Shown: positions 1,603 to 17,922 of the stretch, one piece after another | Position numbering within the stretch: position 1 is the first letter of the stretch | Layout: every line of letters begins with the position of its first letter | Origin: Alphaproteobacteria bacterium | GTDB lineage: Bacteria > Pseudomonadota > Alphaproteobacteria > UBA9219 | Direction: 5' to 3' | Length of the DNA: 64,000 nucleotides | Assembly (NCBI GenBank): GCA_033763555.1 | Contig: JANRKK010000045.1 | Coordinates: 2,277 to 66,276 of the forward strand | Position numbers and translations under genes: made by a program | The notes under the pieces: generated by a model | Told to the model about the DNA's origin: nothing | Seen by the model: only the letters and a program-made list of their open reading frames with translations | Databases searched by the model: none

Positions 1603-3165
1603 ATGGTCCAGATTTCATTGAAAAACAAAGCGGCTCAAGCCAAGCCGCAGATCCACGAAGATGTGGATAATATGCTCGCGCAAGTTGAGAATCTTGCCCG
1701 CGAAGCGCGTCAGCCTGAAATCACGGAAACCATCAACGAAGCGCCGCGTAGCTTCCCGAATTTTACCCGCCTGCTACAAATTTCGGGTCGTTACCTGATG
1801 ATGAGCGACATTGTCGCCCTGCTGGCTGCTTTTACATGCGGTGGCGTCGGAGCCTGGGCCGTTGATGTCTATCTGTTCAACGAAGGCTTCCAGGAATTGT
1901 TCCATATTATGTCATTGCAGCAATTTGCCATCTTCACAGGCTTGGGCGCAGTTGCGCTGCTGTGGCTGGACACCAAAGGCCATTACCGTCAGCGCCTCCC
2001 TTATTGGGAAGTCATTGGTCATCTGGTTGCCGTGGTCATGCTCGGGTTCCTTGCGGGAGGCTTTATTCAATTCGCTTCCAAGAATGACTCCTCCCGTTTG
2101 TGGATGGGGTTGAGCTGGCTGATGTTTGGCGTGTTTTTGCTGACGGGCCGCACCCTCGTGCGCCGTATGTTGGAGAAACACGGCCTCTGGAAAGTTCCAG
2201 CCGTCATGATCGGCACAGGCCCGACGGCCCAGGCAGCGATGAGTACCCTGAATCGCGAACGCAAGATGGGTTTTGCGCTGGTCAAACAAATTGATGCTTC
2301 GGCTTTGGAAACCTTGTCGAAGCCGCATGCCTGGAAGCATTTGCTGATGACGCATGGTGCATCGCATATTTTCCTCGCGCTGGAAGGCAGTGAAGTCGAA
2401 AAAAATTCAGTGGCGATCAAATCCATGGTTCGCGCGCGCGTCCCCTGCTCCATCATTCCGGCCTGGCTTGGCTTGCCGTCCAGCACGCTGTCGCCGCATC
2501 ACTTCATGATGCATGACGTTGTGCTGCTGCATAACACCAACCGCTTGCAATTGCCCTTGCCGCGCCTGCTCAAGCGCAGCTTCGATATTCTTCTCGCAGG
2601 AACAGCCCTTGTTGTACTGTCGCCTTTGTTTGCTGGCGTTGCTTTGTTGGTGCGTCGTGATGGTGGCCCGGCCTTTTTCAAGCAGGCGCGTGTTGGCCGC
2701 GGCGGACGTCTGTTCAATTGCTATAAGTTCCGCTCTATGCGCATCGATGCCGAGAAATTTCTCGCGCGTTATCTGATTGAAAATCCCGCTGCCGCACAGG
2801 AATGGCGCCAGTTTCAGAAACTGAAAAATGATGTGCGCGTCACGAAGTTTGGCCAATTCATTCGCCGCACCAGCCTCGATGAATTGCCGCAGCTGATCAA
2901 TGTGCTGAAAGGCGAAATGAGCCTTGTAGGTCCGCGTCCCTGTATGCCCGGACAGGAAGATTTCTATGCCGAAGATTTCAGCTTCTATGAATCCGTGCGC
3001 CCGGGCATCACAGGCCCATGGCAGGTCAGCGGTCGCAACAAGCTGACTTTCAAGGAACGCGTCCAGCTGGAATCCTGGTATGCGCGTAACTGGAGTCTGT
3101 GGATGGACGTTGTTATCGTTCTGAAAACAGTCCCAACGTTGCTCAAAAAAGATCAGGCGTTTTAA
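1603..3165 (+). CDS. Undecaprenyl-phosphate hexose-1-phosphate transferase (WbaP/PssA/ExoY-family priming sugar transferase) with an N-terminal multi-TM domain
   Basis: 520 aa. The C-terminal bacterial sugar transferase signature is present ([11 protein letters not shown]...[21 protein letters not shown]), with TM helices in the first 200 aa. Confidence 0.85.
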
Positions 3166-3223: not shown

Positions 3224-3688
3224 ATGCCGCGTCCCTACAAAATATCTGATGAAACCCGTCGCCAAAAATCCGAACAACTGAAACGGCAATGGAAAGATCC
3301 TCAGTTTAAAGAGATAGCTAAAACGACTGCTAGAAACACCATGAAACAGCAATGGGCCAATCCGGAAATCAGAGCTCGGCGAACATCTGCTGCCAGAAAA
3401 CGAATGACACGATTAAATGCTGACCCTCTCTTTAAAGCTAAAGCAAGAGTAGCTGGAGGAAAAATTTTAAAGCGACTAAACGCAGATCCTGTAATGCGTA
3501 GCAGAATAATGGCCGCGTCTCGTGAAGCCATGGTGCGATTGAATGCTGACCCGGCATTTAGAGCCAAAAACGCAGCTGCGATGAGTGAGCGCATGAAAAA
3601 GCTGTGGGACAATCCCGAAAGCCGGGAAGCAATGTTGGAGGCCCGAAGAATTAAAAGAGAGCTACGCTCTAAGCCACCCACTCCGTAA
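3224..3688 (+). CDS. Hypothetical basic protein built of six tandem ~21-22 aa helical repeats (LNADPxF[KR]AK..., WxNPExR...)
   Basis: 154 aa, lacking Cys, with a run of six similar ~21-22 aa segments containing the motifs LNADP and W-x-[DN]-P-[EQ]. GC is visibly lower (~45%) than the neighbours. The 3' end overlaps the convergent GH10 gene by 27 nt. Confidence 0.55.
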   Translation: MPRPYKISDETRRQKSEQLKRQWKDPQFKEIAKTTARNTMKQQWANPEIRARRTSAARKRMTRLNADPLFKAKARVAGGKILKRLNADPVMRSRIMAASREAMVRLNADPAFRAKNAAAMSERMKKLWDNPESREAMLEARRIKRELRSKPPTP

Positions 3689-4810
3689 ACTTTCCCACAA
3701 AGGCCCGCGCTGATAATTTGTATCGAGCGGCAGGCTTCCTTGCGCATCGCCTAGGGCATCTTCCAGCCAGCTGCGGCGGTCGCTCAACCCCCATGTCAGC
3801 AGCGTATTGACGGATCCGCTTTCTTGCACCATGGCGAGGTAGGTCTGCACATAATTTTGCGCGAAGGTGCTTCGTTCATAGCCCTCACCTGGAACACGGC
3901 TAAGATCGAGATCAAGCTCGGTTATATAAATCTCAATCCCCAAACCACGAACTGTTTTCAGGAATTCGGTAAAGTCCCTGCCTCCCAAGGGCAGATGGCA
4001 TCGCAAATGGCTTTGCAGTCCCAGCGCATGAATTGGAACGTTTTTGGTTTTGAGTTTTTTGAGAAGATTCAGAAGAAGTTTTCGTTTGGCATATCCATAG
4101 CCATCACCGCGTTCCAAACCAAAATCATTGTAGACAAGCGTAAGCCCCGGATCGACCTGATGTGCATAGTGGAACACCTGAGAGATGTAATTCGGGCCAA
4201 GTGCTTTGAGCCATAGCGTCTCACGCAAACCATCCTTGCGCGGTGAACGCGGATCGATCGCCTCATTAACGACATCCCAATTGCGGATCATCGGTGAAGT
4301 TTCGGCAACTACACGCTCGATATGTGCGCGCAGAATTTTTTCTGCGGTCTTTTTATTTTTGAGTTCGGGCACAAGCCATGATGGGTTTGCATGATGCCAG
4401 ACCAAAACATGTCCACGCATCGCCAGGCTGTTGGCTTGCGCAAATTGTGCCAGACGATGATAGCCGCTGAAATCAAATTCCGCAGGCGATGGTCGCAACG
4501 CATCCCATTTCAACTCACCCTCGGGAACAAGCAACGCGACTTCCCTCTTCAACGCCTCGGCAAAGCGATGGTCATTGAGCTGGCTGCTTTTAACAGCAGC
4601 ACCATAAAGGCGGCCTTTTTTGCGGGCCAAAGCCCCCAGGCCTGGGCTGCGAAAGCCCGTTTCCGGATAAAGGCTGAGAGATTCGCATCCGGCTAGGCTC
4701 AGGCCTGAAAATCCGAGCAGCGGCAGGCCCAAAAGAGCCCGTAAAAAATCGCGGCGCAAAATATTTTTTGGGGAGAGAAAGCTCGAATGCATGCAAACGG
4801 ATAAAAACAT
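3662..4810 (-). CDS. Glycoside hydrolase family 10 (endo-beta-1,4-xylanase-like) with a twin-arginine (Tat) signal and lipobox
   Basis: The GH10 catalytic motifs WDVVNEA (acid/base) and ITELDLD (nucleophile) are present. The N-terminus carries RRDFLRALLGLPLLGF...LAGC, a Tat motif plus lipobox-like Cys. Confidence 0.8.
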   Translation of the reverse strand: MFLSVCMHSSFLSPKNILRRDFLRALLGLPLLGFSGLSLAGCESLSLYPETGFRSPGLGALARKKGRLYGAAVKSSQLNDHRFAEALKREVALLVPEGELKWDALRPSPAEFDFSGYHRLAQFAQANSLAMRGHVLVWHHANPSWLVPELKNKKTAEKILRAHIERVVAETSPMIRNWDVVNEAIDPRSPRKDGLRETLWLKALGPNYISQVFHYAHQVDPGLTLVYNDFGLERGDGYGYAKRKLLLNLLKKLKTKNVPIHALGLQSHLRCHLPLGGRDFTEFLKTVRGLGIEIYITELDLDLSRVPGEGYERSTFAQNYVQTYLAMVQESGSVNTLLTWGLSDRRSWLEDALGDAQGSLPLDTNYQRGPLWESLRSGWLRA

Positions 4811-4949
4811 AAGAAAAAGAAGGGCGAAATAGAAAAATTGGATAAAATTTAAAGTAAATCATCCGTTAATACTAAGTATAATTAAAAAGCGATTAGTCAT
4901 ACGCATCTAAGATGGACCTTGATTTCAACAAGTATTCAAGGTCTTTCCC

Positions 4950-5459
4950 GTGAAAAATTACTTAAAGATATTTTCCGTTTTGAGCCTTATTGCGCTTGCG
5001 AACTGCGCGCAAACTTCGGCTGTATCTGACGGAACCACTATCCCCTCTGAAACCCTGGCCCCCCTGGCCAGCTGGGTTGGACAGGCCACCAAAGTCCCCA
5101 TGGTGTCCTTACCCATTACAGTTGCCAGCAATACCCGGCTGAAATCAGCCATGGGCCTGGAAGGCGTTCAACAGGCCCGTGCCATGGCAGCCTATCTGCC
5201 TGGCCAGATCGTCATCAATAACCTGGCCTGGGACCCTGAATCGCTGCGTTCCCAAAGCTATTTGGTCCATGAGCTTGTCCATCATGCCCAGCTCCTTAGC
5301 GGCCGTAAGTATGCCTGCCATGCGGCCAAAGAAAGCGAAGCTTACAGGCTGCAAAATCAATGGCTTGTCGAGCATGGCCTCTCGGCTATCACCAGTGACC
5401 AATGGATCGCCGAAATTGCATCCTGCAAGGGTGATGCTGACGACCATGGGTCGCTCTAG
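4950..5459 (+). CDS. Hypothetical lipoprotein with an HExxH motif (possible small zinc metallopeptidase)
   Basis: 169 aa with signal/lipobox MKNYLKIFSVLSLIALANC and the motif HELVHHAQ. An AT-rich divergent promoter region is shared with the GH10 gene. Confidence 0.5.
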   Translation: MKNYLKIFSVLSLIALANCAQTSAVSDGTTIPSETLAPLASWVGQATKVPMVSLPITVASNTRLKSAMGLEGVQQARAMAAYLPGQIVINNLAWDPESLRSQSYLVHELVHHAQLLSGRKYACHAAKESEAYRLQNQWLVEHGLSAITSDQWIAEIASCKGDADDHGSL

Positions 5460-5706
5460 CCTGACCTAAGTCTTCCTTTGATTTTTACCGATAAGTCAAA
5501 ATATTCAATTAATTTCAATTAGTTGAATAGATATCACATTGTTTTAAAAATACCACATAGGCCTTAAAAGCTTTCCCTGGGCCTCGATTTCCCCCTGTTA
5601 ACTATAAAAATTTGTGGAAAAAATATAGCGGACTCCTTAGAACATGGGGGTCTTGTGAGGGGCTTCGACGGTCTTGGCCGCACGCAAAAAACGTAAGGGG
5701 AACATC

Positions 5707-6285
5707 ATGAAAAAGCTTCTTTTAGTCATTGCACTCGTATTCTCGATTGCCGGAATTTCTCCGGTACACGCAGCCACCTGGACGAACGAAGTTCAGGCAG
5801 CCATCCAAAGCGGCAATTTTGAACAAATCAACGTCATCGGCGCAAAAAATCCTTCGGCCGCTGGCGACATCGCCGTCTATCTGCTGCAGCAGTCTCAGAA
5901 CAAAGCTCTGTCGCAAGATGTGCGCGTGAAGCTGTTTACGGCTGCAACGCCGTTCGCAGGTCAGATTGCCCCGAACGACACGGCCGCTGCAGGCAAAATC
6001 ATCAATGCGATGCTGGCTTTGGCGAACAACCCGGCTTTCCAAAAGACCAATCCGAACGCTGCCGCTGACATCTACGCCAGCGCTCTGAACATGAGCGGTC
6101 AGCCGAACATGATTGTTGGCAACCCCAACCTGCACAACGCCGTTCTGGCTGATGCCGATGATTTCCTCGGCAACGCTCCGGCGGATGCGGACAAGAGATT
6201 GCGTGAACAGGTCAGCTTGGCTTTGTTTGTCGGCGCTCCCCCTCCCCTGGGTCCGCGCGGCATCATCAACCCGAGCTTTGAGTAA
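5707..6285 (+). CDS. Hypothetical secreted protein (Ala/Asn/Pro-rich)
   Basis: Start chosen at MKKLLLVIALVFSIAGISPVHA (signal peptide), preceded by the RBS AAGGGGAA. The ORF-track start at 5674 is probably too far upstream. Confidence 0.55.
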   Translation: MKKLLLVIALVFSIAGISPVHAATWTNEVQAAIQSGNFEQINVIGAKNPSAAGDIAVYLLQQSQNKALSQDVRVKLFTAATPFAGQIAPNDTAAAGKIINAMLALANNPAFQKTNPNAAADIYASALNMSGQPNMIVGNPNLHNAVLADADDFLGNAPADADKRLREQVSLALFVGAPPPLGPRGIINPSFE

Positions 6286-6377: not shown

Positions 6378-7685
6378 ATGAAGAGAGTGTTTCTTGCTGT
6401 GGTCATTCTGACTGTCAGCTTTGTGGTGGCAAAAACCGCGCAAGCCGATGCCGGATTGCTTGGCCAAAACGTGCAAGTGCTCGATGCGTCGCTGAACATG
6501 CGCCGCTCAACCACCGAACAAATCGACCCCATCCGCGGCCAATCGGTTCTAATGCGCCCGCGTCCGGATTTCGATCCTGTGCCAATTCCCGTTGGCTCGT
6601 TCCAGCTGTTCCCGGCCATCAACGTCGGCACCTACTACGACAGCAACATCTTCGCCTTGCAGAACAATGAAGAGAGAGACCTTGTATGGAAAATCAACCC
6701 GACAATGTCTTTCCTGTCCAACTGGGGTCGTCATGCGCTCGGATTTACGGGGCTGGCGGATATTGATTACTACACCGTCGATGACAAACAGAATTACGCA
6801 GGCGGCGCCATGCAGGCAGAAGGTCGCTATGACATCTCCGAACAAATGTGGCTGTCAGGCGTTGGCGGCTATCAGCGTGTAACAGAACTCAAGGGTTCTC
6901 CTGCCGACCAAGGTAATGCCGCTGGCCCCAGTCAATATGATCTTTACAGTGCTGGCGCGCAGTTTTATCGCGGCGTTGGTCTTCTGAAGACCACGGTCAA
7001 TTACAACTTTGGCTACTACGAATACAGTCCCGTTGAAATCATCGGTGGTGGCACAGCAAGCCAAAGTGCGCGTGACCGTACCCAGAACAAGGTCGATGGT
7101 GAAGTCCGTTACGATGTTACGGAAAACCTCAAGCCCTTCATCCGCGGTGCTTATAACTGGCGCGACTACACGACAACCAGCTCTCACTCATCGAATGGTT
7201 ATAATATCGATGTTGGTGCTGCGATGGATTTCGGTGGCATCACAACAGCCGAAGCCTATATCGGTTACATGTCGCAGGACTATTACAACTTCATGAGCGG
7301 CGTGGTGGATGCGATCGATTTCGGCGGCAACCTCCTCTGGAACGTAACGCCTCTCACTTCGGTTGAATTCCGTGCCCGCCGCAGCATTGAAGAAACGACG
7401 GTTGGTTCAGCTTCGTCCTTTCTGGCTTCGGAAGGCCAGATGATCCTGAGTCATGAGCTGAGACGCGACATCGTTCTCCAGTCCCGCGTGATCTATGACG
7501 GGTTGGATTACAACGAAATCGAACGCCATGATGATCTGTATGATGTCGGCGTCGGCGCGCGTTACTACATGAACCGTAACTTTTATGGCGACTTCACTTA
7601 TGACTTCCAGCGCCGCACGACGGATGCTGCTGGTCTGAACTATGACCGCCATATCGCGTTCCTACGGTTTGGCGCGCAATACTAA
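6378..7685 (+). CDS. Outer-membrane beta-barrel protein, probable partner of the downstream short OPX export protein
   Basis: 435 aa with signal peptide MKRVFLAVVILTVSFVVAKTAQA. It is Tyr/Gly/Asn-rich with alternating beta-strand patterns and a C-terminal aromatic end (...LRFGAQY). It sits 14 nt upstream of the Wza-like gene. Confidence 0.7.
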   Translation: MKRVFLAVVILTVSFVVAKTAQADAGLLGQNVQVLDASLNMRRSTTEQIDPIRGQSVLMRPRPDFDPVPIPVGSFQLFPAINVGTYYDSNIFALQNNEERDLVWKINPTMSFLSNWGRHALGFTGLADIDYYTVDDKQNYAGGAMQAEGRYDISEQMWLSGVGGYQRVTELKGSPADQGNAAGPSQYDLYSAGAQFYRGVGLLKTTVNYNFGYYEYSPVEIIGGGTASQSARDRTQNKVDGEVRYDVTENLKPFIRGAYNWRDYTTTSSHSSNGYNIDVGAAMDFGGITTAEAYIGYMSQDYYNFMSGVVDAIDFGGNLLWNVTPLTSVEFRARRSIEETTVGSASSFLASEGQMILSHELRRDIVLQSRVIYDGLDYNEIERHDDLYDVGVGARYYMNRNFYGDFTYDFQRRTTDAAGLNYDRHIAFLRFGAQY

Positions 7686-7698
7686 CTTTAACTGACAG

Positions 7699-8277
7699 GT
7701 GTCCATGCCGTTCAGGGGTCTTCTGTTCGCTGCTGTTGTGTGCGCTGGCTTAGGTTCTGCGCCTATGCTGTCTGTGGCAGAAACGGCAACGCCATCCCCT
7801 GCTCCAGCTCCCCAGAAAATCAGCGATTATGTGCTGGGTGTTGGCGATAAGCTGAAGATTACCGTCTTCGGTGAGGACAACCTCTCGGGTGACTTTGAGA
7901 TTTCTTCGACAGGCGTGATTTCCATGTCCCTGATCGGAGAAGTGAAAGCTTCGGGTTTGACTATTACGCAGGTGCAGAACACGATTACCCGCAAGCTGTC
8001 CGAGGGCTACATGAAGAACCCGCATGTCAGCCTTCAGGTCTTGAATTACAGGCCCTTTTTTATCGTGGGTGAAGTGATGAAGCCCGGCAGTTACAATTAT
8101 GTAAATGGCATGACGGTGATCAATGCTGTCGCGCTGGCCGGGGGTTATACATATAGAGCCGACAAAGACGATATTAAGGTAAAGCATGGAGGGCCCGACG
8201 CCAAGGAAGAGCCTGCAAAAGAAGGCACGGCTATTCTTCCCGGCGATGTTGTTAACGTGCCTGAAAGATTTTTCTGA
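7699..8277 (+). CDS. Polysaccharide export protein, Wza/GumB/ExoF-like OPX (short form, periplasmic Poly_export domain only)
   Basis: 192 aa with a signal peptide and a Poly_export-like core (YVLGVGDKLKITVFGEDNLSG...ITQVQNTITRKLSEGYMKNPHVSLQVLNYRPFFIVGEV). It is too short to contain a C-terminal OM-spanning helix domain. Confidence 0.8.
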   Translation: MSMPFRGLLFAAVVCAGLGSAPMLSVAETATPSPAPAPQKISDYVLGVGDKLKITVFGEDNLSGDFEISSTGVISMSLIGEVKASGLTITQVQNTITRKLSEGYMKNPHVSLQVLNYRPFFIVGEVMKPGSYNYVNGMTVINAVALAGGYTYRADKDDIKVKHGGPDAKEEPAKEGTAILPGDVVNVPERFF

Positions 8278-8327: not shown

Positions 8328-10472
8328 ATGAATCAAGAACAATTGATGATGATGACGGACGTCCGCGAAATCTGGCTTTTCGTGCGCCGTAACGCCAAGC
8401 TTATCCTGTTGATCGCCGTCAGCGCTTCTATCCTGGCCTTCATATCGACCTTTATCATCCCGCCTCGCTACACAGGCGAAGCGGTGATCATGCTCGACCC
8501 GCGCAAAACGAACCTGACCAACGTTCAGTCAGTTCTCTCCAACCTTCCTGCTGAAAACGCAGCCGTCCGAAGCGAAATCGACATCATTGAATCGCGGGCC
8601 GTCATCAACCGCGTCATTGAAGAGCTCGACCTGCTCAACAATGCCGATTTCAACCCCAGCCTGTCCGGTACGCGTTGGTTCCTCCGCCTTTTCGCCAGCC
8701 GCAAGCCCGAAAGCAAGCAGCAACAGATCAGCGAAGACCGTAGCGCTATTGCCAACAAGCTGACCAAGCGCCTGACAGTCGAGAATGACGGCCGTTCCTA
8801 CAGCATCGTCCTCAAATACCGTGATCGCGACCCCGCCCAGGCTGCCAAGATTGCCAATTCCTTTGCTGATCAATATCTCGTTGATCAGCTGGAAGTTAAG
8901 TACGACATCACCCAGCGCGCCAACGCCTGGCTGTCCAAGCGCCTTTCCGATCTACGCGATAAGGTTGGCGTCGCCGAGCGAGCGATTGAAGACTACAAGA
9001 CATCCAACAATCTGGTCGATGTCGGCGATGAAACCATCACGCAACAGCAGCTAAGCGCCATCGATGAACATTTGCTGGAAGCCCGCGCCGAAAGGTCACA
9101 GGCCGAAGCGCGCTACACCAGCGTTAAAAATATGGGCGAACATGCCCTTGAAACATCGTCCGTCATCATCGCTTCCCCGTTGATTCAACAATTAAAGCAG
9201 CAGGAAGCTGAAGTCCGCCGGAAAGAGGCTGACCTCGCCACCCGCTACGGCGACCGCCATCCGATGATCATCGATACGCGTAATGAGCTGCGCAGTATCC
9301 GCGACAAAATTGCCGAAGAAATCAAAAAAATCGTCGCGGGTCTTAAGAATGATTACGACATCGCCTCCAGCAAGACGGACAGCCTGGAGCGTGAACTGAC
9401 CCGCCTGAAGGCCGAAACGGGCGAAGGTAACAAGGCCATGGTTGTCCTGCGACAAATGCAGCGCGAAGCCAGCTCCAACCGCAGCCTGTATGAAGGTTTT
9501 TTGAACCGCTTTAAGCAGATCGCCGAGCAGCAGGATCTGCAGATTGCAGATTCCCGTATCATTGCCCGCGCAGAACCGCCGATTAAACCACACTTCCCCA
9601 AAAAGTGGATATTCACAGGTGTCGGCGCGGCGGCAGGCCTGGTTCTGGGCTTCCTCTTGACGCTTCTGCTGGAATATCTCGACCGTGGCATGCGTTCGCT
9701 GACGGCGGCTGAAAAGCTTTATGGCATTTCAGGATTGGGCATCGTTCCCCTTGCTGAAACATCCGAAGGCCAACTGCCAACCGATTATCTGCTGGAAAAA
9801 CCGCTATCGATCTATGCCGAATCCATCCGGTCTATCCGTGCTGCTATCCACTTCTCAAACGTCGACCGTCCCCCAAAAACTGTTGTCGTTACCAGTTCCT
9901 TCCCCAACGAAGGGAAGACTGTGTTTTCATCCTCCCTGGCCCGCTTGTTGGCAAAATCAGGGCAGAAAACCATCCTGATCGACGCTGATATGCGCCGCCC
10001 GCGCATCCATAGCATTCTGGGTCTCGACAAAAATAAACCTGATCTGGCCTCAGTTCTGGCTGGCAAGGCTACACTTGCCCAAGCCCTCCAGAAGGACGCC
10101 AGCGGTGCGGATGTCATCATCGCCCGGGCCCGCACCATGAATCCGCAGGATTTGCTGAATTCCCACCAGATGGAAAAGCTGCTCAATACGCTGCGCGAAA
10201 ACTATGATATGGTGATTATCGATACGCCTCCGGTCATGGCCGTGGCTGACGCCGCGCTCATCGGCCAGAAGGCGGATACGACGGTTTATGTTGCCCGTTG
10301 GTCGGCCACACCCAAGGAAGTCATCGGTGAAGGTCTGAAGCAGTTGGCAAAGTTCAATATCCGCCTTGCGGGCATGGTGCTGACGCAGGTCGATCTCCAA
10401 GACAAGAAGCAATACGGTTACGACGACTACAGCTACTATTATGGCCAGTACAAGAGCTATTACACGAATTAA
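8328..10472 (+). CDS. Polysaccharide co-polymerase PCP-2a / tyrosine autokinase (Wzc/ExoP-like chain-length determinant)
   Basis: 714 aa with an N-terminal TM, a Wzz-like periplasmic coiled coil and a second TM. The C-terminal P-loop ATPase domain carries SSFPNEGKTVFSSSLA and DTPPV, and there is a Tyr-rich tail YGYDDYSYYYGQYKSYYTN. Confidence 0.85.
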   Translation: MNQEQLMMMTDVREIWLFVRRNAKLILLIAVSASILAFISTFIIPPRYTGEAVIMLDPRKTNLTNVQSVLSNLPAENAAVRSEIDIIESRAVINRVIEELDLLNNADFNPSLSGTRWFLRLFASRKPESKQQQISEDRSAIANKLTKRLTVENDGRSYSIVLKYRDRDPAQAAKIANSFADQYLVDQLEVKYDITQRANAWLSKRLSDLRDKVGVAERAIEDYKTSNNLVDVGDETITQQQLSAIDEHLLEARAERSQAEARYTSVKNMGEHALETSSVIIASPLIQQLKQQEAEVRRKEADLATRYGDRHPMIIDTRNELRSIRDKIAEEIKKIVAGLKNDYDIASSKTDSLERELTRLKAETGEGNKAMVVLRQMQREASSNRSLYEGFLNRFKQIAEQQDLQIADSRIIARAEPPIKPHFPKKWIFTGVGAAAGLVLGFLLTLLLEYLDRGMRSLTAAEKLYGISGLGIVPLAETSEGQLPTDYLLEKPLSIYAESIRSIRAAIHFSNVDRPPKTVVVTSSFPNEGKTVFSSSLARLLAKSGQKTILIDADMRRPRIHSILGLDKNKPDLASVLAGKATLAQALQKDASGADVIIARARTMNPQDLLNSHQMEKLLNTLRENYDMVIIDTPPVMAVADAALIGQKADTTVYVARWSATPKEVIGEGLKQLAKFNIRLAGMVLTQVDLQDKKQYGYDDYSYYYGQYKSYYTN

Positions 10473-11043
10473 ATCCGTTAAGAACGGATTTGCCGCGCTG
10501 TACGGCGCGCTGGTGCTCTTTGCCCTGATCAATCTGTTCTGGACGCTGACCCCGGCCGAAGACAGCAACGCCAAAATCGATGAAAAGATGCAGACGGTGG
10601 ACAGCCTCCCCGTCCGTGAGCGGCTTGAGCTTCTGACCCAGTTGCGTCAGGACCAGGAAAGCAACCTGACGCGCAGACCGTCAGAGCCCTATGGCTGGGC
10701 CCGCCTCTCTCGCCTGCGTTCCATGACCCAGGGTGATGCAAAGGCTGCCTTTGCGGCCCTGCAGATGTCCGATCTTGTCAGCCCCTATGAGGCTGCCCAA
10801 ATGCCGGAGCGCGCCATCATGTGGTACAAGCTGCGCGGCGTTCAAACGCCGGAGCAGCGCGCCTATCAGGATATTCTCTGGAAAAAAGCCTACGGGTTTC
10901 AACGCAAGGCGACCTGGACGATTGCCGTCGATAACAATCTGATCAAGGAAGTTGGCGAATCCTTGAAGAAGACCGAGCCGTCCCTGTACGAAGAATGGAA
11001 GACATGGGACGCCATGCGCAGCCAGGGCAAAACGACGCCCTAG
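10441..11043 (+). CDS. Hypothetical membrane-anchored protein
   Basis: 200 aa with a single N-terminal TM (FAALYGALVLFALINLFWTL). Its only ATG start overlaps the Wzc-like 3' end by 32 nt out of frame. The 3' end abuts the convergent ligase-like gene. Confidence 0.4.
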   Translation: MASTRAITRIKSVKNGFAALYGALVLFALINLFWTLTPAEDSNAKIDEKMQTVDSLPVRERLELLTQLRQDQESNLTRRPSEPYGWARLSRLRSMTQGDAKAAFAALQMSDLVSPYEAAQMPERAIMWYKLRGVQTPEQRAYQDILWKKAYGFQRKATWTIAVDNNLIKEVGESLKKTEPSLYEEWKTWDAMRSQGKTTP

Positions 11044-12434
11044 CCTTTCGTGTTCGCAATGGTCTGACGGTCGGATTGCGTCCAGCTCTGCGCCAGCCCC
11101 GTTCCTAACAACGCTGCCCATACCATCGCTACACCGGGTATCTGCAGGCTGAAATCCACGCAGGCATGCAGCAGAACCATGCATGAGGTGGTCAGGGCCA
11201 GAACGGAGAAAATACCATTCTGGCGGCGGCGCATGACGCCATGGCCCAGAACGCTTAGCAGCAGCCCTATGGCCACCCACAGCAGCAACCCAAAGGGAAC
11301 GCCCAGATCCAGAAGGGATTCCAGAACATCGCTGTGCGCGCGTTTAAAGCCCATCAGCATATTATGCTGATAAAGGCGGTATTCCGCCTCAAACCCGTTC
11401 AGCCCATAGCCCAGCCAGGGATTATCAAGCAGAGCCCGCCAGACCATTTTGTAGACTTTGAGCCTGTCCAGCGATGAGCTGTCATTGAACAGCACCGAGA
11501 AGCGCTCAGACAGCTGCATGGCGATGACCGAAGCCACAATCAGAAGGCCCAGAGCCACAAGGCCCATGATGACCATCCGCTTCCAGGCTTTGAGATAGAT
11601 TTGATAAAAGAAAAAATACGCGCCAACGCCGAAGACAGCCAGCAACAGCCCCGCGCGCGAATGGCTGAATATGATGCAGAGAAAAACCATGAACAGCAAA
11701 AAGACCTGAAAGAAGCCTTCCTTCACCAGCCATTCACGGAGCAAGGCAATCCGCTTGTGTGGTTTTTGCCTTTGAACCTTCTGCTGCCATGAACGGAAGA
11801 ACAGCGACGCGCCACAGACCAGAACCATACCCGCATAAAGGGCGAAGTGGTTACGATTGACGAAAGTCGCCGTCAAATCCCCCTGATAAGCCCATTTATC
11901 AAACCAGAGAATTTTATCCATGCCCGTGATGTAGACGAGCAGGCCATAGGCGCAAATGACAGTACCGGATAGCCACAGGGTTTTGATCAGGCTTTGCGCC
12001 CTGCCCGCATCTTGCCCCAGAATGTAGCCCAGCAGCCCTGCGGCGATGTAGGTCATCAGGCCCGTAATGCCTTGCAGACTATCTTCAGGCGTAACGGCTA
12101 TCGCGCCATGGATAGAGGTGCCCAGAACGGTCGCTGCTTCATGCCAGAGCGGATGCACCCAGGAGCCGGGAACAAAGGGCATGGTCTGAAAGAAGGCCCA
12201 TAGCAGGACAACCCCAAAAAGCCCGAGAGCCCAGCGTATGCGCGGAAAGAAATGCACCTGCGACCATACGCCCGGGCTGGAAAGTAACAACAGGCAGCTT
12301 GCCGCTAGTCCGGCCTGCGCCAGCCCCATGGGTATCGGCCGATTACCGCCAAGCCCGATGGGCAACAACGCTACACTCAGGGCAAAGCACCAGAAGGCGT
12401 AGTCGGTAAAATTCAGGCGGTTTGTATGAGCCAT
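11040..12434 (-). CDS. O-antigen ligase / Wzy_C-family polytopic membrane protein (EPS polymerase or ligase, ExoQ-like)
   Basis: 464 aa with about 10-12 TM helices and a Wzy_C-like motif region (FSHSRAGLLLAVFGVGAYFFF). Confidence 0.65.
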   Translation of the reverse strand: MAHTNRLNFTDYAFWCFALSVALLPIGLGGNRPIPMGLAQAGLAASCLLLLSSPGVWSQVHFFPRIRWALGLFGVVLLWAFFQTMPFVPGSWVHPLWHEAATVLGTSIHGAIAVTPEDSLQGITGLMTYIAAGLLGYILGQDAGRAQSLIKTLWLSGTVICAYGLLVYITGMDKILWFDKWAYQGDLTATFVNRNHFALYAGMVLVCGASLFFRSWQQKVQRQKPHKRIALLREWLVKEGFFQVFLLFMVFLCIIFSHSRAGLLLAVFGVGAYFFFYQIYLKAWKRMVIMGLVALGLLIVASVIAMQLSERFSVLFNDSSSLDRLKVYKMVWRALLDNPWLGYGLNGFEAEYRLYQHNMLMGFKRAHSDVLESLLDLGVPFGLLLWVAIGLLLSVLGHGVMRRRQNGIFSVLALTTSCMVLLHACVDFSLQIPGVAMVWAALLGTGLAQSWTQSDRQTIANTKG

Positions 12435-13141
12435 TGTTTCGTCCCTTCAAGCGCCAAGGCTGTGAGGCAGCCCGTTGCATAAGCGCCTGTATCTATACTG
12501 ATGCGATTCGGGCAAAACTCAGCCTCAAATGTAATGGTATGGCCATGTACGACAACCTTGCCGAAGGAATCCTTGTGGTTCAGGAATTCATAACGAATCC
12601 AGACAAGATCCTGCTCATTTTGTGATTCGAGTGCGACGCCCGGCCGCACCCCTGCATGGCAGAAAAAATAATCGCCGTAGGTGGCTGAAAGCTCCAAATT
12701 TTCCAGAAAATCCACATGCGCTGGCGGAACCTTGGAAGCCATTTCCTTCAGAACTTCGGTGGGATTTTCGGTCAACTTGGCAGGCGACAGGCCATAGCTG
12801 AGAAGCGTCTCCCTGCCTCCGAATTGGAACCAGTCGCCAAGCAATCCAGGATCGGAATCGCGCAACAGCTGTCGCATGACTTGTTCGTGATTACCCATAA
12901 GGAAAATGGGTGGTTCTTTTTCCTTCGCGCGCCAGTCGATCAGATAGTCGATGATCTGGCAGCTATGGAGGCCACGGTCGATATAATCGCCAAGAAAAAT
13001 CTTTTTAACAGGGCCTTTTGCTGTCTTTGCATCCTCATCGATTTTGGCAAGCAGCTGTTTCAATAAATCCAGACGGCCATGCACATCGCCTACGGCGTAA
13101 AGCCGTATCCCTTCGGGAAGGCTCGGAGATGATGTGGTCAT
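12413..13141 (-). CDS. PPP-family metallophosphoesterase (bacterial Ser/Thr protein phosphatase, PrpA/ApaH-like)
   Basis: The motifs GDVHGR, GDYIDRG, GNHE and HGHT are present. The 3' end overlaps the start of the ligase-like gene by 22 nt. Confidence 0.8.
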   Translation of the reverse strand: MTTSSPSLPEGIRLYAVGDVHGRLDLLKQLLAKIDEDAKTAKGPVKKIFLGDYIDRGLHSCQIIDYLIDWRAKEKEPPIFLMGNHEQVMRQLLRDSDPGLLGDWFQFGGRETLLSYGLSPAKLTENPTEVLKEMASKVPPAHVDFLENLELSATYGDYFFCHAGVRPGVALESQNEQDLVWIRYEFLNHKDSFGKVVVHGHTITFEAEFCPNRISIDTGAYATGCLTALALEGTKQWLIQTA

Positions 13142-13236: not shown

Positions 13237-14793
13237 ATGGCTTTTTCCCGTTCTGTTGCAACTGTTGGGTTCTTTACGCTTCTGTCGCGCCTGCTTGGCT
13301 TTGTGCGCGATCTGGTAACCGCCAATCTGCTGGGCGTAGGCCCTGTCGCCGATGCCTATATCGTCGCTCAGCGGCTCCCCAACATGTTCCGCGCCCTATT
13401 CGCTGAAGGAGCCGTGGATTCCACCTTTGTGCCGATTTACACCCGCAAAAAGCGGCAAGAAGCTCCGGCCGAGGTCGCCGTCTTCGTCAATCACATTTTC
13501 ACGATACTGGTTCTGGTTCTTTTACCCCTGACCATTCTTGCTATCCTGCTCATGCCGTGGGTTATCCGTTTGATCGCACCCGGCTTTGCCGATGATCCCC
13601 AGCGTTTTAATCTGGCTGTCACCTATGGCAGCATTACCTTCGGTTATCTTCTGCTGGTTTCCGTTACGGCTCTCCAAGGCGGCTTGTTGAATGCCAATCG
13701 GCATTTTGCGCCCTTTGCCATTGCTCCCGTCATTCTGAACGCCATCATGATTGCCGGACTTCTCTATGCGAAATGGGAAGGTCTGGAAGCAGGGCTGATT
13801 GGCTCATGGGCTTTGATCGCGGGCGGCGTGGCGCAATGCGCTTGGCTTTATGTCTATTGCCGCCGTCAGGGTCTTTCTTTGGGTTTTGCCTGGCCCCGTT
13901 GGACAAGCGATGTCCGGCGCTTTTTCAAACTTGTCGGGCCGGGTGTGATCGGCATCAGCGCTGATCAAATCCACCTGCTGGTTTCGACCATTTTGGCTTC
14001 AACGCTGCCTTCAGGTGCCATTGCGGCGCTTTATTATGCCGACCGAGTTAATCAACTTCCTTTTGGTGTTATCGGCGGTGCAATTGCAACAACTCTGCTG
14101 CCCGTCTTGACTCATCACATCGCCGCCCGCGAAACCAAGGAAACGACCCATCATTTCAGCCGCGCGATTGAGATCGCCCTCCTCGTCAGCCTGCCTGTGG
14201 GCCTGGTTCTGCTTCTGGCGGCCGAACCGCTTATCCGCATTTTGTTCCAGCATGGTGCGTTCGATGCCGAAAATACCCGCTCTACGGCACAGGCCCTTGC
14301 CAGCTACGCGCTGGCTATTCCGGCCTATATGATGGTGCGCATTCTGAATATGCGTTTCTTCGCACATGAAGATACGAAAACGCCTGTGCTTGTGACCTTT
14401 ATTGCCGTTCTCGCGAATGGCGGTGCAGCATGGCTGCTCAAGCCTTCACTTGGCCATGTCGGCATTGCTTTGGCCTTCACCTTCGCCCTTTGGGTTAATG
14501 CCGTCTGTTTAAGCTTTCTTTTGTGGCAACGAGGTCAGTTTCGCGTTGACCGGACTTTAAAACGGCACCTACCGCGCCTTGCCGGAGCCGCAGCCATTAT
14601 GGGAGGTGTGTTGATGGTGAGCGTAAGGCTGAATGAAAGTCTGAGCGAAGTTCTTGTGTTGCCAGACTTTATCTATGATCTGGTCGTTTTGGGCATCCGA
14701 CTTGGCGTAAGCGGCATGGCTTACCTTGCAGTCCTTGATATGCTGGGTGTCGCGCGCCTGTCGGATATCAAGAAGCTTTTGAAACGCGCTTGA
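13237..14793 (+). CDS. murJ: MurJ/MviN-family (MVF) lipid-linked oligosaccharide flippase
   Basis: 518 aa with a conserved MurJ N-terminus (LLSRLLGFVRDLVTANLLGVGPVADAYIVAQRLPNMFRALFAEGA) and about 14 TM helices. Confidence 0.85.
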   Translation: MAFSRSVATVGFFTLLSRLLGFVRDLVTANLLGVGPVADAYIVAQRLPNMFRALFAEGAVDSTFVPIYTRKKRQEAPAEVAVFVNHIFTILVLVLLPLTILAILLMPWVIRLIAPGFADDPQRFNLAVTYGSITFGYLLLVSVTALQGGLLNANRHFAPFAIAPVILNAIMIAGLLYAKWEGLEAGLIGSWALIAGGVAQCAWLYVYCRRQGLSLGFAWPRWTSDVRRFFKLVGPGVIGISADQIHLLVSTILASTLPSGAIAALYYADRVNQLPFGVIGGAIATTLLPVLTHHIAARETKETTHHFSRAIEIALLVSLPVGLVLLLAAEPLIRILFQHGAFDAENTRSTAQALASYALAIPAYMMVRILNMRFFAHEDTKTPVLVTFIAVLANGGAAWLLKPSLGHVGIALAFTFALWVNAVCLSFLLWQRGQFRVDRTLKRHLPRLAGAAAIMGGVLMVSVRLNESLSEVLVLPDFIYDLVVLGIRLGVSGMAYLAVLDMLGVARLSDIKKLLKRA

Positions 14794-15550
14794 GATAAAC
14801 GCCTTTCACTTTTTCGACGATAGCGCAGACGAGTTTCTTGATAAAAACCTGATACTCGATCAGGTAACGGCGCCACAATCTGCCCGGCTCTTTGTAGAGC
14901 CTGTACAGAAAGCGTATATTCCACTCATCAACCCAGCGCGGGTAGTACGGATCAGCCAGCAAATACTGGTCAAAAAATCCGCCGCAGGTAATGGCCATGC
15001 CTTTGTATCCCGCATCGCGCAAGGCTAGCAAAAAGGCTTCCTGACGCGGCGCACCCATAGCCACAATGACGGCATCAGGCGATTTGGCGATGACACCTTC
15101 CACTTTCGGCCCGAAATCGCCGTATCCATGGAATGTGCCGACAATTTTTAATTCGGGATAATGGACATGGAGTTTTTCATGCATGGATTCATCCACGCCC
15201 GGATCGCCACCGACGAGCATAAGGGATGCTTTGCGTTCAATGACCGCCCGCAAGAAAGGATCAGCCAATGACGTCATGTCAAAGCTGACCCGCTGACAAT
15301 CCTCTTTCGTCAGTAAACGGCAGGCCAATGCAACGCCTTCGCCATCCGGCAAGTTGAGGGACATCTGTTCCAGTGTAGGAACATATTCAGGGCGCTTCTC
15401 AGCCAAAGCCCAGGCGGCTGGATTGATAAAGGTCACAAGGCGCGGCTTGCCCTTTTTCTGCAGCAACTGACAGACGCCTTCAACGCTCGCGCCGACATCC
15501 AGCGGCAATCCAAGAAAAGTGATACGCTTCATACTCATGTTTGTGTCCAA
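14768..15550 (-). CDS. WecB/TagA/CpsF-family glycosyltransferase
   Basis: 260 aa with core ITFLGLPLDV...LVTFINPAAWALAEKRPEY...DGEGVA, typical of PF03808. The 3' end overlaps the murJ 3' end convergently by 26 nt. Confidence 0.75.
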   Translation of the reverse strand: MDTNMSMKRITFLGLPLDVGASVEGVCQLLQKKGKPRLVTFINPAAWALAEKRPEYVPTLEQMSLNLPDGEGVALACRLLTKEDCQRVSFDMTSLADPFLRAVIERKASLMLVGGDPGVDESMHEKLHVHYPELKIVGTFHGYGDFGPKVEGVIAKSPDAVIVAMGAPRQEAFLLALRDAGYKGMAITCGGFFDQYLLADPYYPRWVDEWNIRFLYRLYKEPGRLWRRYLIEYQVFIKKLVCAIVEKVKGVYLKRVSKAS

Positions 15551-15552
15551 TC

Positions 15553-16632
15553 TTATGCCTGTTTGCGCGCCTGTCCGGTTAGATCCGAGCGATAGGCTGC
15601 AAAGGCAGTATCATCCTTGATCAGCCCCAGCCGCACAAGATCGCCGGAATTCCTGTACATAACGCTTTTTCCATAGAAGAACGACATGCGAGGGTCTGAT
15701 TCCATGGCCTTAAGATAACGGGCATATTCGCTTGCGCCATCAAAATGTTCACCGCGCTTGACCTCTCCCATAACCCGTTCGTGGAAATCTGAAAAAAACT
15801 TGAAATGCAGCAAGGCGCCTGTGACCGAAGCCAGCTTGAGGGGCGAAACCATGTGGCTGTTGACCAATTGGAAACCGGGTTTCACCTGAAACAGGGGAAC
15901 TTTGAAAAGAATGGGCGGCACCGAGCAATTGACCGACAGTTGAATGCCAAAACGGCTTAAAAGATCGCGCAGACGGCGTAAAATTTTGGTTTTGGCTACG
16001 GCCCACATCCCTGCCCTGTGATACTCAGGATAAAAGCGCCGCAAACGCGGGCCGCCGACAGGCTCGATACGGGGAAACGGCTTTTTGGCAAAAGGCGCCT
16101 TCAGACGTGGCCGGAATTTATATTCCGTATCAAGATAAGGGCAAACTTCGAGGAAAGGCTGGCCTTGTTTATAGACCGCCTCGGCCACAGGCCCGCGATT
16201 ATACATATCGATCATGGCCGTATAGAGCCCTTCTGCACCTGTACCTTCCAGATAGGTGCAGAACTCAGGCAGTAACACACTCTCACAGCCCGGATAGATC
16301 AGCATCTCATCGGCATCAAGGATAAGCCACCAGTGCGAGCCTTCGCCATATTGCTGCAAGATATGCTCATGCCAGAGAACGCCATATTTTGCAGTAGCGA
16401 ATGATTCTGACGTGGAAAAGACATGGCAGTCTTTCTGCTGCGCCAAAAATTCCAGGCTGCCATCTGTGGAACCATTATCGACCACAAAAAAACGGCTGAT
16501 ACCCAGCTTGCGGTAATAGCTCAGGAGCCAAGGCAGCCTCTGCGCCTCGTTGCGCGCGATGATAATAGCGCGGCATTCGGGCGTGCTGTTCTCGATAAGA
16601 TGAGAGTCGAGGCGTTGCAGGGTACTGGCCAT
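15553..16632 (-). CDS. Glycosyltransferase family 2 protein (Glyco_tranf_2_4-like)
   Basis: N-terminus RAIIIARNEAQRLPWLLSYYRKLGISRFFVVDNGSTDGS and a DxD motif LDADEML. It is 2 nt downstream of the WecB-like gene. Confidence 0.7.
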   Translation of the reverse strand: MASTLQRLDSHLIENSTPECRAIIIARNEAQRLPWLLSYYRKLGISRFFVVDNGSTDGSLEFLAQQKDCHVFSTSESFATAKYGVLWHEHILQQYGEGSHWWLILDADEMLIYPGCESVLLPEFCTYLEGTGAEGLYTAMIDMYNRGPVAEAVYKQGQPFLEVCPYLDTEYKFRPRLKAPFAKKPFPRIEPVGGPRLRRFYPEYHRAGMWAVAKTKILRRLRDLLSRFGIQLSVNCSVPPILFKVPLFQVKPGFQLVNSHMVSPLKLASVTGALLHFKFFSDFHERVMGEVKRGEHFDGASEYARYLKAMESDPRMSFFYGKSVMYRNSGDLVRLGLIKDDTAFAAYRSDLTGQARKQA

Positions 16633-16770: not shown

Positions 16771-17922
16771 TTAGCGTTTTGCGAGCTTTCGCCCAAGGGC
16801 CATGGCGGGCATTTCGACAAAGCGGTTCATGAGGGCTGAAGCTGTCAGGGAAGCTGCCAGTACAACCAAAACGACTGCTCCATAGGGTAATATCCCCAGC
16901 AATTCACGGAACAAAAGAATGAGGATGGGTAAGTGAAGCAGATAGAGACTGTAGGAGATATGCCCCAGCCAAACTAAAGCTTTAGCTTCCAAGAGTTTCC
17001 GAATTTGAGCAGCTTCAACGGCCAGTATTACTAGAACCACCGCGCCAACGCCGTACAGAACATCCGCATAATGCGAATGCGGAATGGGGAACATCAATAA
17101 AGGAATAAGCAGTAGCGCATAGCGCTTGGGTGCCGATAGCTTGCGCATATAGCCATGGATTTCTCTTGCGTGCTTGCTGATTAATATTCCGGCCATGAAA
17201 AACGGAATAAACCGTGCCGTAATAACCCAGGTAATAAGAAAACTGTCAGTTCGGACAAGCCAATGATCCGTCTGTCCTGAAACCAGCAAAAGCCCTGTAG
17301 CGACAACGTATAAAATGATACCTGCAATAACAGCCTTTTTTGTGCTGCGGCATAGCAGCATGAGAAGTGGGAAAATAATCGAGATGCGCATTTCATAAAC
17401 CAGCGACCACATCACGGTATTGAGGGACATGGTTTTTTCCGTTCCCACCATCAGAAGATGTCCCATGAAGGTAAGAAAATCGGGCGGCGCCGCAGGCCAT
17501 ATGCCTTGCAGCCATTGGCTTGTCCCCTCGCCTGTATGGCCAAACCCTATTTGATACAGCAAGGCCGCAAGGAAGATGGATACGAAGAAAGGTATGTAAA
17601 TCCGGCAGATGCGTTTGATAAGATAATGCGGATAATCCGGCTGTTTCCCGCGCAAAAACGGCAAGGCCAACACATAGCCGCTGAGAACAAAAAAGATAAT
17701 CACCGAAGCGTGGCCGTTGATGAAAAGCCGCAAAGGCGTATAGCGTATCCAATTCAACTGCCAGCGCAGCTCTTCCGGCCAGGTTAGATAACAATGCGAA
17801 AAAACGACTACGAGCGCGGCAATACCGCGCAAGGAATCCAGCGCTTCGATCCGCCCCGAGAAAGCGTTTTTGACGTCTTTATCCATGCGTGCTTTTAACC
17901 CATCGCCCAAAACCGGATGCAT
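16771..17922 (-). CDS. Acyltransferase family 3 membrane protein (polysaccharide O-acetyltransferase, ExoZ-like)
   Basis: 383 aa, polytopic, with the acyltransferase_3 motif LDSLRGIAALVVVFSHCY. Confidence 0.8.
   Translation of the reverse strand: MHPVLGDGLKARMDKDVKNAFSGRIEALDSLRGIAALVVVFSHCYLTWPEELRWQLNWIRYTPLRLFINGHASVIIFFVLSGYVLALPFLRGKQPDYPHYLIKRICRIYIPFFVSIFLAALLYQIGFGHTGEGTSQWLQGIWPAAPPDFLTFMGHLLMVGTEKTMSLNTVMWSLVYEMRISIIFPLLMLLCRSTKKAVIAGIILYVVATGLLLVSGQTDHWLVRTDSFLITWVITARFIPFFMAGILISKHAREIHGYMRKLSAPKRYALLLIPLLMFPIPHSHYADVLYGVGAVVLVILAVEAAQIRKLLEAKALVWLGHISYSLYLLHLPILILLFRELLGILPYGAVVLVVLAASLTASALMNRFVEMPAMALGRKLAKR

Follow-up and report, generated by a model that had tools for sequence, protein, structure and literature searches.

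A GH10 protein with a twin-arginine signal in a conserved alphaproteobacterial polysaccharide locus, probably a glycanase of the cell's own polymer

The DNA analyzed here, referred to as the window, is a stretch of 64,000 nucleotides (positions 2,277 to 66,276 of contig JANRKK010000045.1, assembly GCA_033763555.1) from an uncultured alphaproteobacterium of the lineage UBA9219, and it harbors a gene for a glycoside hydrolase family 10 (GH10) protein. The open reading frame (ORF) encodes an intact GH10 enzyme with both catalytic glutamates, the genes around it form a Wzx/Wzy-type polysaccharide locus, and the GH10 gene is a real member of that locus, since it occupies the same place in four relatives although the regions outside the locus are different. 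We consider it probable that the protein is a retaining endo-beta-1,4-glycanase serving as a dedicated accessory of this surface-polysaccharide pathway, and most likely it is a periplasmic, membrane-tethered enzyme that trims the cell's own polymer. As such it is a new example of a kind already known, the cluster-encoded GH10 glycanases of exopolysaccharide (EPS) synthesis represented by PrmN and PssW. The coordinates of all features are collected in Table 1.

The gene order of the locus was compared with that of contigs carrying GH10 homologs at 61% (L001), 59% (L002/L003), 54% (L004/L005) and 44% (P0038) identity. These are metagenome contigs, through which the close clade was studied, as a scan of species-representative genomes listed nothing above 42% identity. 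In L001, L002/L003 and L004/L005 the genes for the priming transferase, GH10, DUF6647, orf203, BBP2_2, Poly_export, Wzc, orf200, Wzy_C and the metallophosphoesterase, in part followed by MurJ and WecG, occur in the same order as in the window. The P0038 contig retains the block from GH10 to the metallophosphoesterase, with a few extra genes separating GH10 from the priming transferase, and the stretch between these two genes is variable among the relatives in general. In every relative GH10 is divergent from DUF6647, across a gap of 119 to 163 bp. The outer flanks vary by contig and consist of ispDF, cinA and ribosomal genes, of PhaC and gene-transfer-agent genes, or of queuosine genes. A search with the seryl-tRNA synthetase of the window assigned the organism to an uncultured alphaproteobacterial lineage represented by metagenome-assembled genomes, the best match being 77% identical. 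An earlier note on this DNA had assigned the GH10 gene to an EPS locus and had proposed to look for GH10 homologs at unrelated loci in relatives as evidence to the contrary; when this check was run, synteny was kept in all four relatives and the assignment stood.

Glyco_hydro_10 (PF00331) is the sole Pfam domain of the 382-aa protein and spans residues 58 to 374, covering profile positions 2 to 307 of 311 (E = 2.6e-74, 250.7 bits against a cut-off of 22.1); Pfam gave no GH16 catalytic domain in the protein. An AlphaFold model built on 27 homologs, in which residues are numbered from Met7, has a mean predicted local distance difference test (pLDDT) score of 87.7 and a predicted template modeling score of 0.84, with the barrel beginning at about residue 50. 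All of the top 50 Foldseek hits in the PDB are entries of the GH10 fold, and the best of them are GH10 xylanases with target-normalized template modeling scores of 0.86 to 0.92. By sequence, the closest solved proteins are likewise all GH10 xylanases, the best being Xyn10B of Thermotoga petrophila at 171 bits. The catalytic motifs WDVVNEA and ITELD, which the earlier note had described as intact, align with those of the solved enzymes, and the Asn-Glu of the acid/base and the nucleophilic Glu are unchanged in all 85 loci compared and in an alignment of 27 sequences (the window protein and 26 homologs at 44 to 72% identity).

A public record that is 100% identical to the window protein, annotated as "endo-1,4-beta-xylanase", is 322 aa long and starts at Leu61, and so lacks the signal peptide and lipobox, which lie within window positions 4628 to 4810. 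The longer form of the gene is probably the correct one, as conservation extends upstream of Leu61. No Shine-Dalgarno sequence was found before ATG 4810 or ATG 4792, between which the choice of start codon lies. The homolog P0002 begins at the position equivalent to Met7, and the twin-arginine signal and the lipobox are retained with either start. At the other end of the gene, a 154-aa ORF on the plus strand (3224 to 3688) is convergent with GH10 and overlaps its 3' end by 27 bp. It consists in part of three to four copies of a repeat of about 22 aa (RLNADPxF[KR]AK-like), is without a family match and is not kept in the relatives, which differ from one another in this interval, and possibly it is no gene at all.

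The N-terminus of the GH10 protein reads MFLSVCMHSSFLSPKNILRRDFLRALLGLPLLGFSGLSLAGC and has the layout of a lipoprotein signal peptide of the twin-arginine translocation (Tat) type. The two arginines and the lipobox cysteine are the only positions that are invariant (27 of 27) within the first 50 residues of the 27-sequence alignment. Both had been singled out in the earlier note, the former in the motif RRDFLRAL and the latter as a "lipobox-like" Cys; the lipobox in fact is canonical (L-A-G-C42). Most homologs in this alignment read [ST]-R-R-x-[FL]-L, and Asp follows the lipobox cysteine at +2 in none of the 27. The 17-residue hydrophobic region (h-region) contains many Gly, Ser and Pro residues and is only moderately hydrophobic (mean Kyte-Doolittle value 1.66). 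In the model, the pLDDT of residues 1 to 11 and 21 to 47 falls short of 50, in keeping with a signal peptide and a linker.

An arginine pair followed by a hydrophobic stretch was found in 212 of 228 full-length homologs (27/32, 74/80 and 111/116 across three fetched sets), and the few close-clade proteins that lack it seem to be gene calls that were cut short. Tat targeting is therefore predicted to be a trait of the whole GH10 branch. A lipobox occurs in 25 of the 32 proteins of the close clade as opposed to 14 of 80 and 3 of 116 in the more distant sets, and lipid anchoring, because the lipobox is common in the close clade only, appears to be specific to the window clade and the PrmN-type proteins of Sphingobium.

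That the signal is used by Sec rather than Tat, with the arginine pair merely forming part of a positively charged n-region, is unlikely. Use of Sec would suit a GH10 enzyme, which requires no cofactor, and in the window protein the residue preceding the arginine pair is Leu and not Ser or Thr. The Pfam model TAT_signal (PF10518) also weighs against the Tat call, as it leaves the window N-terminus unmatched and scores three homologs at 13.5 to 16.6 bits against a cut-off of 22.7; this model is short and insensitive, and its lack of a match weakens the call and does not overturn it. With no match to this model, the call is based on the motif and on the degree to which it is conserved. Against Sec stand the invariance of the arginine pair amid varying flanks, the prevalence of the Ser/Thr-led motif among the homologs, the recurrence of the pair with an h-region in several phyla, and the composition and moderate hydrophobicity of the h-region itself. 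The proposal of a Tat-exported lipoprotein made in the earlier note is thus backed by the arginine pair with its h-region, by the lipobox and by the presence of tatABC, and is not backed by the TAT_signal profile.

The tatABC genes, to which the same note had drawn attention, do lie about 36 kb from the GH10 gene, flanked by miaA and serS, and are housekeeping genes. Their proximity was rejected as meaningful because of these housekeeping neighbors and because Tat signals are the norm in the GH10 branch; the link to the GH10 gene is not supported.

GH10 enzymes in alphaproteobacterial EPS loci had been taken to be uncommon, a view that the literature and our survey contradict. According to a preprint, PssW of Rhizobium leguminosarum is a GH10 enzyme that generates low-molecular-weight EPS. 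Its gene is the first of the 14-gene pssW-pssE glycosyltransferase operon in the Pss-I EPS region of that species. PrmN is the GH10 protein of the 17-gene cluster for the EPS promonan in Sphingomonas sp. LM7, which also encodes a priming transferase, a beta-barrel porin, Wza, Wzz, a tyrosine kinase, WecG, Wzy, family 2 glycosyltransferases (GT2) and an OafA acyltransferase (PMC11340318).

The survey comprised 80 distant GH10 loci at 30 to 42% identity among the matches listed in species-representative genomes, chosen by similarity to the window clade, and neighboring genes were sought within 10 kb by tblastn with the proteins of the window locus. Homologs of the family 26 glycosyltransferase (GT26), the priming transferase, Wzc or the exporter were found in 24 of the 80 loci listed, in several phyla. 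A GT26 gene occurred in 19 of them, as compared with about 1% expected from a rough background, the association counts being uncorrected for phylogeny. GT26 enzymes (for example WecG, TagA and GumM) are inverting transferases by which the lipid-linked primer receives its second sugar in beta linkage. The recurrent partnership of GT26 with GH10 would fit a repeat unit with a beta-1,4 linkage.

Four of these clusters were confirmed with Pfam or precomputed domains. In Rhizobium tibeticum (L077), Wzz, Wzy, GT2, DUF6492, WecG and GT1 genes lie on one side of GH10 and Wzx on the other, a layout shared by Roseibium sp. M-1. Calothrix sp. PCC 7507 has, on one strand, Wzc, Wzx, GT4, Wzy, GT2, GT4, WecG, GH10 and the priming transferase. 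In Sphingobium ummariense (L014), the succession of AAA+, Wzz, kinase, WecG, one further gene, Wzy, three GT2s, GH10 and acyltransferase equals the published prmE-to-prmO order. GH10 genes inside Wzx/Wzy clusters were also seen in Rhizomicrobium, Methylobacterium, Bradyrhizobium and many cyanobacteria. In heterocystous cyanobacteria (L007, L009, L021, L031, L035, L045 and L087), a GH10 gene with a Tat signal is situated, within Wzx/Wzy operons, immediately between the WecG-family GT26 gene and the priming transferase gene. The overlap of GH10 with the WecG gene amounts to 11 bp in Calothrix PCC 7507. A literature search for cyanobacterial or Tat-lipoprotein GH10 enzymes in EPS clusters returned nothing relevant.

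In a neighbor-joining tree without bootstrap, the window clade is sister to a clade of Sphingobium (PrmN-type) and Rhizomicrobium proteins, all of which have an EPS context. Overall, the EPS-context proteins fall into a few coherent groups, apart from the sequences of Acidobacteriaceae and those resembling canonical xylanases.

The promonan cluster is one of the closest known systems, being an alphaproteobacterial Wzx/Wzy cluster with a GH10 gene and a parts list very similar to that of the window locus. Here PrmN was compared through the syntenic ortholog from Sphingobium as a proxy, which is only 38% identical to the window protein. The two align at 229 bits over their full length, signal included, compared with 171 bits for the best solved xylanase. 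The Sphingobium protein shares the signal pattern RRDFL...LAAC, and its -2 Asn and Gln are replaced as well, by Phe and Ala where the window protein has Gly and Ala. The pairing of a short Wza-like exporter with a BBP2_2 barrel (6378 to 8277) is the same as that of prmC and prmD. Unlike the arrangement in the promonan cluster, the window GH10 gene is divergent from the export operon and adjoins the priming transferase. The window locus has fewer glycosyltransferases and is without the AAA+ ATPase, the GH16 partner and a Polysacc_synt-type Wzx, whereas it holds DUF6647 and two other conserved genes (orf203 and orf200).

The likeness to PssW, as a GH10 enzyme of an alphaproteobacterial EPS region, is drawn from its description in the literature and not from sequence, as no R. 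leguminosarum protein was among the top 120 hits of searches with the window or the R. tibeticum GH10 protein. A difference is that, according to the preprint, the EPS glycanases of rhizobia are delivered to the periplasm by PrsDE and not by Tat. The R. tibeticum protein itself belongs to a different type of cluster, and its Tat signal is not accompanied by a lipobox. ExoK and ExsH (GH16, succinoglycan of Sinorhizobium meliloti) and PrmQ (GH16, promonan) are similar to the window protein in being cluster-encoded endo-glycanases proposed to depolymerize the EPS of their own cell, but they have a beta-jelly roll fold and not the TIM barrel of GH10.

Fold, catalytic Glu pair and -1 subsite are shared with the GH10 xylanases XynB of Thermotoga (1vbr/3niy), XynZ of C. 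thermocellum (1xyz) and Cex of Cellulomonas fimi (2exo). These canonical enzymes differ from the window protein in that they are only 25 to 30% identical in the structural alignment and have Asn and Gln at two positions of the -2 subsite, where the window protein has Gly98 and Ala141. The context also differs, being polysaccharide synthesis and not xylan utilization. We take the two positions to be those of Asn44 and Gln87 in Cex. In the 27-sequence alignment the Asn position varies among G, N, R, S, T, L and A, and the Gln position is invariably Ala, Ser or Gly. Across the 85 loci, Gln is found there in 1 of 29 with an EPS context and in 24 of the other 56, with a Fisher p of 1e-4 that takes no account of common ancestry. 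The window protein does keep Glu, Lys and Trp at the -2 site.

In GH10 xylanases the -2 subsite is well conserved, with Trp contacting O2, Asn contacting O3, Lys contacting the ring oxygen and often a Glu, and in Cex the Trp at -1 and the Gln at -2 must shift to fit the extra hydroxymethyl group of glucose (PMC5738707). The simplest reading of the substitutions is that the -2 pocket is enlarged and less xylose-specific and could accept a sugar bearing C6. Because the O3-binding Asn and the Gln that clashes with C6 have been lost from this subsite, a hexose or uronic-acid backbone would be a more likely substrate than xylan.

In the mechanism that we propose, the (beta/alpha)8 enzyme would fold in the cytoplasm and be exported in the folded state by the housekeeping TatABC system by means of the RRDFLR signal. 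Cys42 would then be lipidated, and a linker of about 15 residues would tether the GH10 domain to the periplasmic face, probably of the outer membrane, which is the probable membrane because the +2 residue is Glu and not Asp. Located beside Wzy, Wzc, the Wza-like exporter and the porin, the enzyme would cut beta-1,4 bonds of the nascent polymer using Glu183 and Glu298. By analogy with ExoK, PslG and BcsZ, such cleavage may set or lower the chain length, release the polymer or clear polymer stalled in the periplasm.

Several points weigh against a trimming enzyme of this kind. The catalytic activity of the window protein, like that of the EPS-cluster GH10s, is a predicted one. When prmN was deleted in Sphingomonas sp. 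LM7, the colonies stayed mucoid and EPS production was unchanged (PMC11340318); because of this lack of a visible phenotype, the role of the GH10 enzyme is perhaps subtle, conditional or redundant. The rule for membrane sorting by the +2 residue is extrapolated from E. coli and is uncertain for the window lineage. As to the substrate, the -1 subsite is kept (Lys101, Asn182, His268 and two Trp) and every relative with a solved structure is a xylanase. When the -2 Asn is lost, the hydrolysis of oligosaccharides suffers more than that of polymers, for which reason the subsite argument is suggestive and goes no further.

It is very unlikely that the polymer has a xylan-like backbone made from UDP-xylose and that the GH10 protein trims it as a true endo-xylanase, as the earlier note had put forward as a possibility from UDP-glucuronate decarboxylase (UXS) encoded in the same locus. 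The UXS gene is genuine and indeed within the same 64-kb window, GH10 is overwhelmingly a xylanase family, and the intact -1 subsite and the solved relatives just mentioned would suit such an enzyme. However, UXS lies 18 kb from GH10, outside the conserved core, with a fabD-like gene (18088 to 19119) and a second acyltransferase in between, and it shares an operon with a GH5 gene and a membrane-protein gene of its own (20104 to 23740, minus strand). UXS was found within 10 kb of GH10 in 0 of 85 loci, the 10-kb flanks of the close relatives stopping short of the equivalent position. Both characterized polymers of GH10-containing clusters are free of xylose: promonan consists of 60 mol% glucose (Glc), 24 mol% glucuronic acid (GlcA) and 16 mol% galactose (Gal), 3- and 4-linked (PMC11340318), and the EPS of R. 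leguminosarum has Glc, GlcA and Gal in a ratio of 5:2:1. The replacement of the -2 Asn and Gln is a further argument against xylan. The presence of UXS is confirmed; the connection with xylan is unsupported.

That the protein is simply a xylanase for feeding on plant hemicellulose, placed beside polysaccharide genes by chance, is most improbable. The public annotation as endo-1,4-beta-xylanase would agree with it, and so would the related GH10 genes of Acidobacteriaceae, which have no polysaccharide-synthesis neighbors. Chance is countered by the position within the locus, which is kept at 44 to 61% identity in four relatives with differing outer flanks. No xylosidase, xylose-isomerase or xyloside-transport gene was seen among the window genes scanned, a lipoprotein facing the periplasm would be badly placed to attack insoluble xylan, and the -2 subsite is remodeled. 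Equally improbable is that the enzyme acts on another envelope glycan, either the product of the UXS-GH5 module or a rhamnose O-antigen, or is largely dispensable: the window does hold several separate glycan gene sets, and the silent prmN deletion fits, but these other modules are not beside GH10 in the relatives, and the close divergent pairing that GH10 maintains with the export operon suggests as its target the polymer which this operon serves.

Beyond the role of the window protein in trimming its own cell's polymer, a wider proposal is possible, and we put it forward tentatively. The protein may belong to a widespread, biochemically uncharacterized branch of GH10 enzymes that are exported by Tat, occur with GT26 and the priming transferase in Wzx/Wzy clusters, have a rebuilt -2 subsite, and would be not xylanases but specific for self-made beta-1,4-linked Glc/GlcA heteropolysaccharides. 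Its members come from Alphaproteobacteria, Cyanobacteria, Gemmatimonadota and some Acidobacteriota. They share the predicted Tat signal, to which the window clade adds a lipid anchor, the co-occurrence with GT26 and priming transferase across phyla, and the loss of the two -2 residues. The subsite changes suggest that the name "xylanase" may be wrong throughout the branch; PssW and PrmN, named in the literature, are still annotated as endo-1,4-beta-xylanase. If the proposal is true, specificity for Glc/GlcA would add a new type of substrate to those of GH10, and if the substrate is indeed the cell's own Glc/GlcA-type polymer, many "xylanase" annotations of genomes and metagenomes would be wrong and xylan-degrading potential would be overestimated. 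Glycanases encoded in EPS clusters set the chain length and release of EPS and serve as anti-biofilm tools, and the window locus adds to them a clean and strongly syntenic GH10 example from an uncultured alphaproteobacterial lineage.

Table 1. Features of the GH10 protein, the polysaccharide locus and other genes of the window (positions are those of the 64,000-nt stretch; identities refer to relatives)
Feature	Position	Strand	Remarks
GH10 ORF	3662..4810	-	382 aa; alternative start ATG 4792 gives 376 aa
GH10 catalytic (beta/alpha)8 domain	3689..4639	-	residues 58-374; Pfam; strands and helices alternate in the model
Glu183, predicted general acid/base, in WDVVNEA (residues 178-184)	4262..4264	-	aligns with NEA motif of solved xylanases
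Glu298, predicted nucleophile, in ITELD (residues 296-300)	3917..3919	-	aligns with TE(L/M)D of solved xylanases
Gly98 at conserved -2 Asn position (E-N-x-x-K-W to E-G-E-L-K-W)	4517..4519	-	Asn in five solved xylanases
Ala141 at xylanase Gln position (W-H-[NS]-Q to W-H-H-A)	4388..4390	-	Gln in five solved xylanases
Signal peptide, residues 1-41	4688..4810	-	twin-arginine n-region, 17-aa h-region ALLGLPLLGFSGLSLAG, lipobox
Arg19-Arg20 of twin-arginine motif L-R-R-D-F-L-R	4751..4756	-	invariant 27/27
Lipobox L39-A-G-C42	4685..4696	-	Cys42 at 4685-4687, predicted lipidated first mature residue; +2 is Glu
Priming polyprenyl-phosphate sugar-1-phosphate transferase, WbaP-type	1603..3165	+	Bac_transf E = 1.5e-65; TIGR03022 417 bits, cut-off 403; syntenic
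Divergent AT-rich intergenic region, GH10 / DUF6647-export operon	4811..4949		139 bp
DUF6647 lipoprotein, HELVHH motif	4950..5459	+	Pfam E = 2.6e-11; 58-61% identical; syntenic in L001-L005 and P0038 contig
orf203, conserved secreted protein	5674..6285	+	syntenic homologs at 35-54% identity
Outer-membrane beta-barrel porin (BBP2_2)	6378..7685	+	PF10082 E = 5.8e-83; syntenic
Short (192-aa) Wza-like outer-membrane polysaccharide export protein	7699..8277	+	Poly_export and SLBB; syntenic, 69-74% identity
Wzc-type co-polymerase with tyrosine autokinase	8328..10472	+	Wzz, GNVR, AAA_31; TIGR01007 145.8 bits, cut-off 108
orf200, conserved protein	10441..11043	+	no Pfam hit; syntenic homologs at 44-49% identity
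Wzy-type polymerase, O-antigen ligase family	11040..12434	-	Wzy_C E = 5.9e-19; syntenic
Metallophosphoesterase	12413..13141	-	Pfam Metallophos; weak matches to Ser/Thr phosphatase models
MurJ-family flippase	13237..14793	+	TIGR01695 419 bits, cut-off 235; syntenic in L001, L002
WecG/TagA/CpsF (GT26) glycosyltransferase	14768..15550	-	Pfam E = 3.8e-37
GT2 glycosyltransferase	15553..16632	-	Glyco_tranf_2_4 E = 1.6e-26
Acyltransferase-3 (OafA-like) O-acyltransferase	16771..17922	-	Acyl_transf_3 E = 2.4e-39; promonan analogue prmO
516-aa polytopic membrane protein	20104-21654	-	no Pfam, NCBIfam or PDB match
Secreted GH5	21651-22793	-	nearest solved: endoglucanases FnCel5A, TmCel5A, E ~1e-21
UXS (UDP-glucuronate decarboxylase)	22790-23740	-	E = 1.5e-124 to human UXS1; YDEGKR, RIFNTYGPR
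tatA, tatB, tatC	~40983-41165, 41185-41439, 41420-42220	+	TatC Pfam E = 1.2e-72; TatA/TatB-like ORFs

Among the genes of the locus, only the WbaP-type priming transferase, MurJ, the kinase domain of Wzc and a generic WecG/TagA/CpsF superfamily model pass their NCBIfam cut-offs. An EpsL/EpsE or PEP-CTERM system label was rejected, the respective NCBIfam models scoring far below cut-off. The MurJ-family protein is the only MOP-family flippase in the core locus, and it is either the housekeeping flippase for lipid II, encoded within the locus, or one taken over for the repeat unit. In L001, L002 and the P0038 contig the metallophosphoesterase keeps its place next to Wzy; the flank of L004 ends before that position. 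It is possibly the phosphatase partner of Wzc, and it recalls PssZ, a Ser/Thr phosphatase of the R. leguminosarum Pss-I region.

The DUF6647 protein, which always pairs with GH10, has a lipobox of its own (L-A-N-C), and its HELVHH motif matches the HExxH pattern of zinc metallopeptidases. For orf203, neither Pfam nor NCBIfam gave a hit. In the divergent gap between GH10 and DUF6647, the motifs C-TTTAA-TA and AATTTTA, about 30 nt apart, are conserved in all four sequences compared (54 to 61% protein identity) and may constitute a shared regulatory site. A promoter scan found no sigma-70 consensus promoter in 4811 to 4949, a region that probably holds shared promoters.

To the left of the priming transferase lie ispDF and cinA. 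On the other side, the operon of UXS, GH5 and the membrane protein looks like a module in its own right, serving a second glycan that may contain xylose. Beyond it follow an Nramp gene, an ArnT-like PMT_2 transferase and a PAP2 phosphatase (27271 to 29660, plus strand), a GT2 gene (35670 to 36518) preceding the rml (dTDP-rhamnose) genes at 36.6 to 40.0 kb, and then miaA, tatABC, serS and other housekeeping genes.

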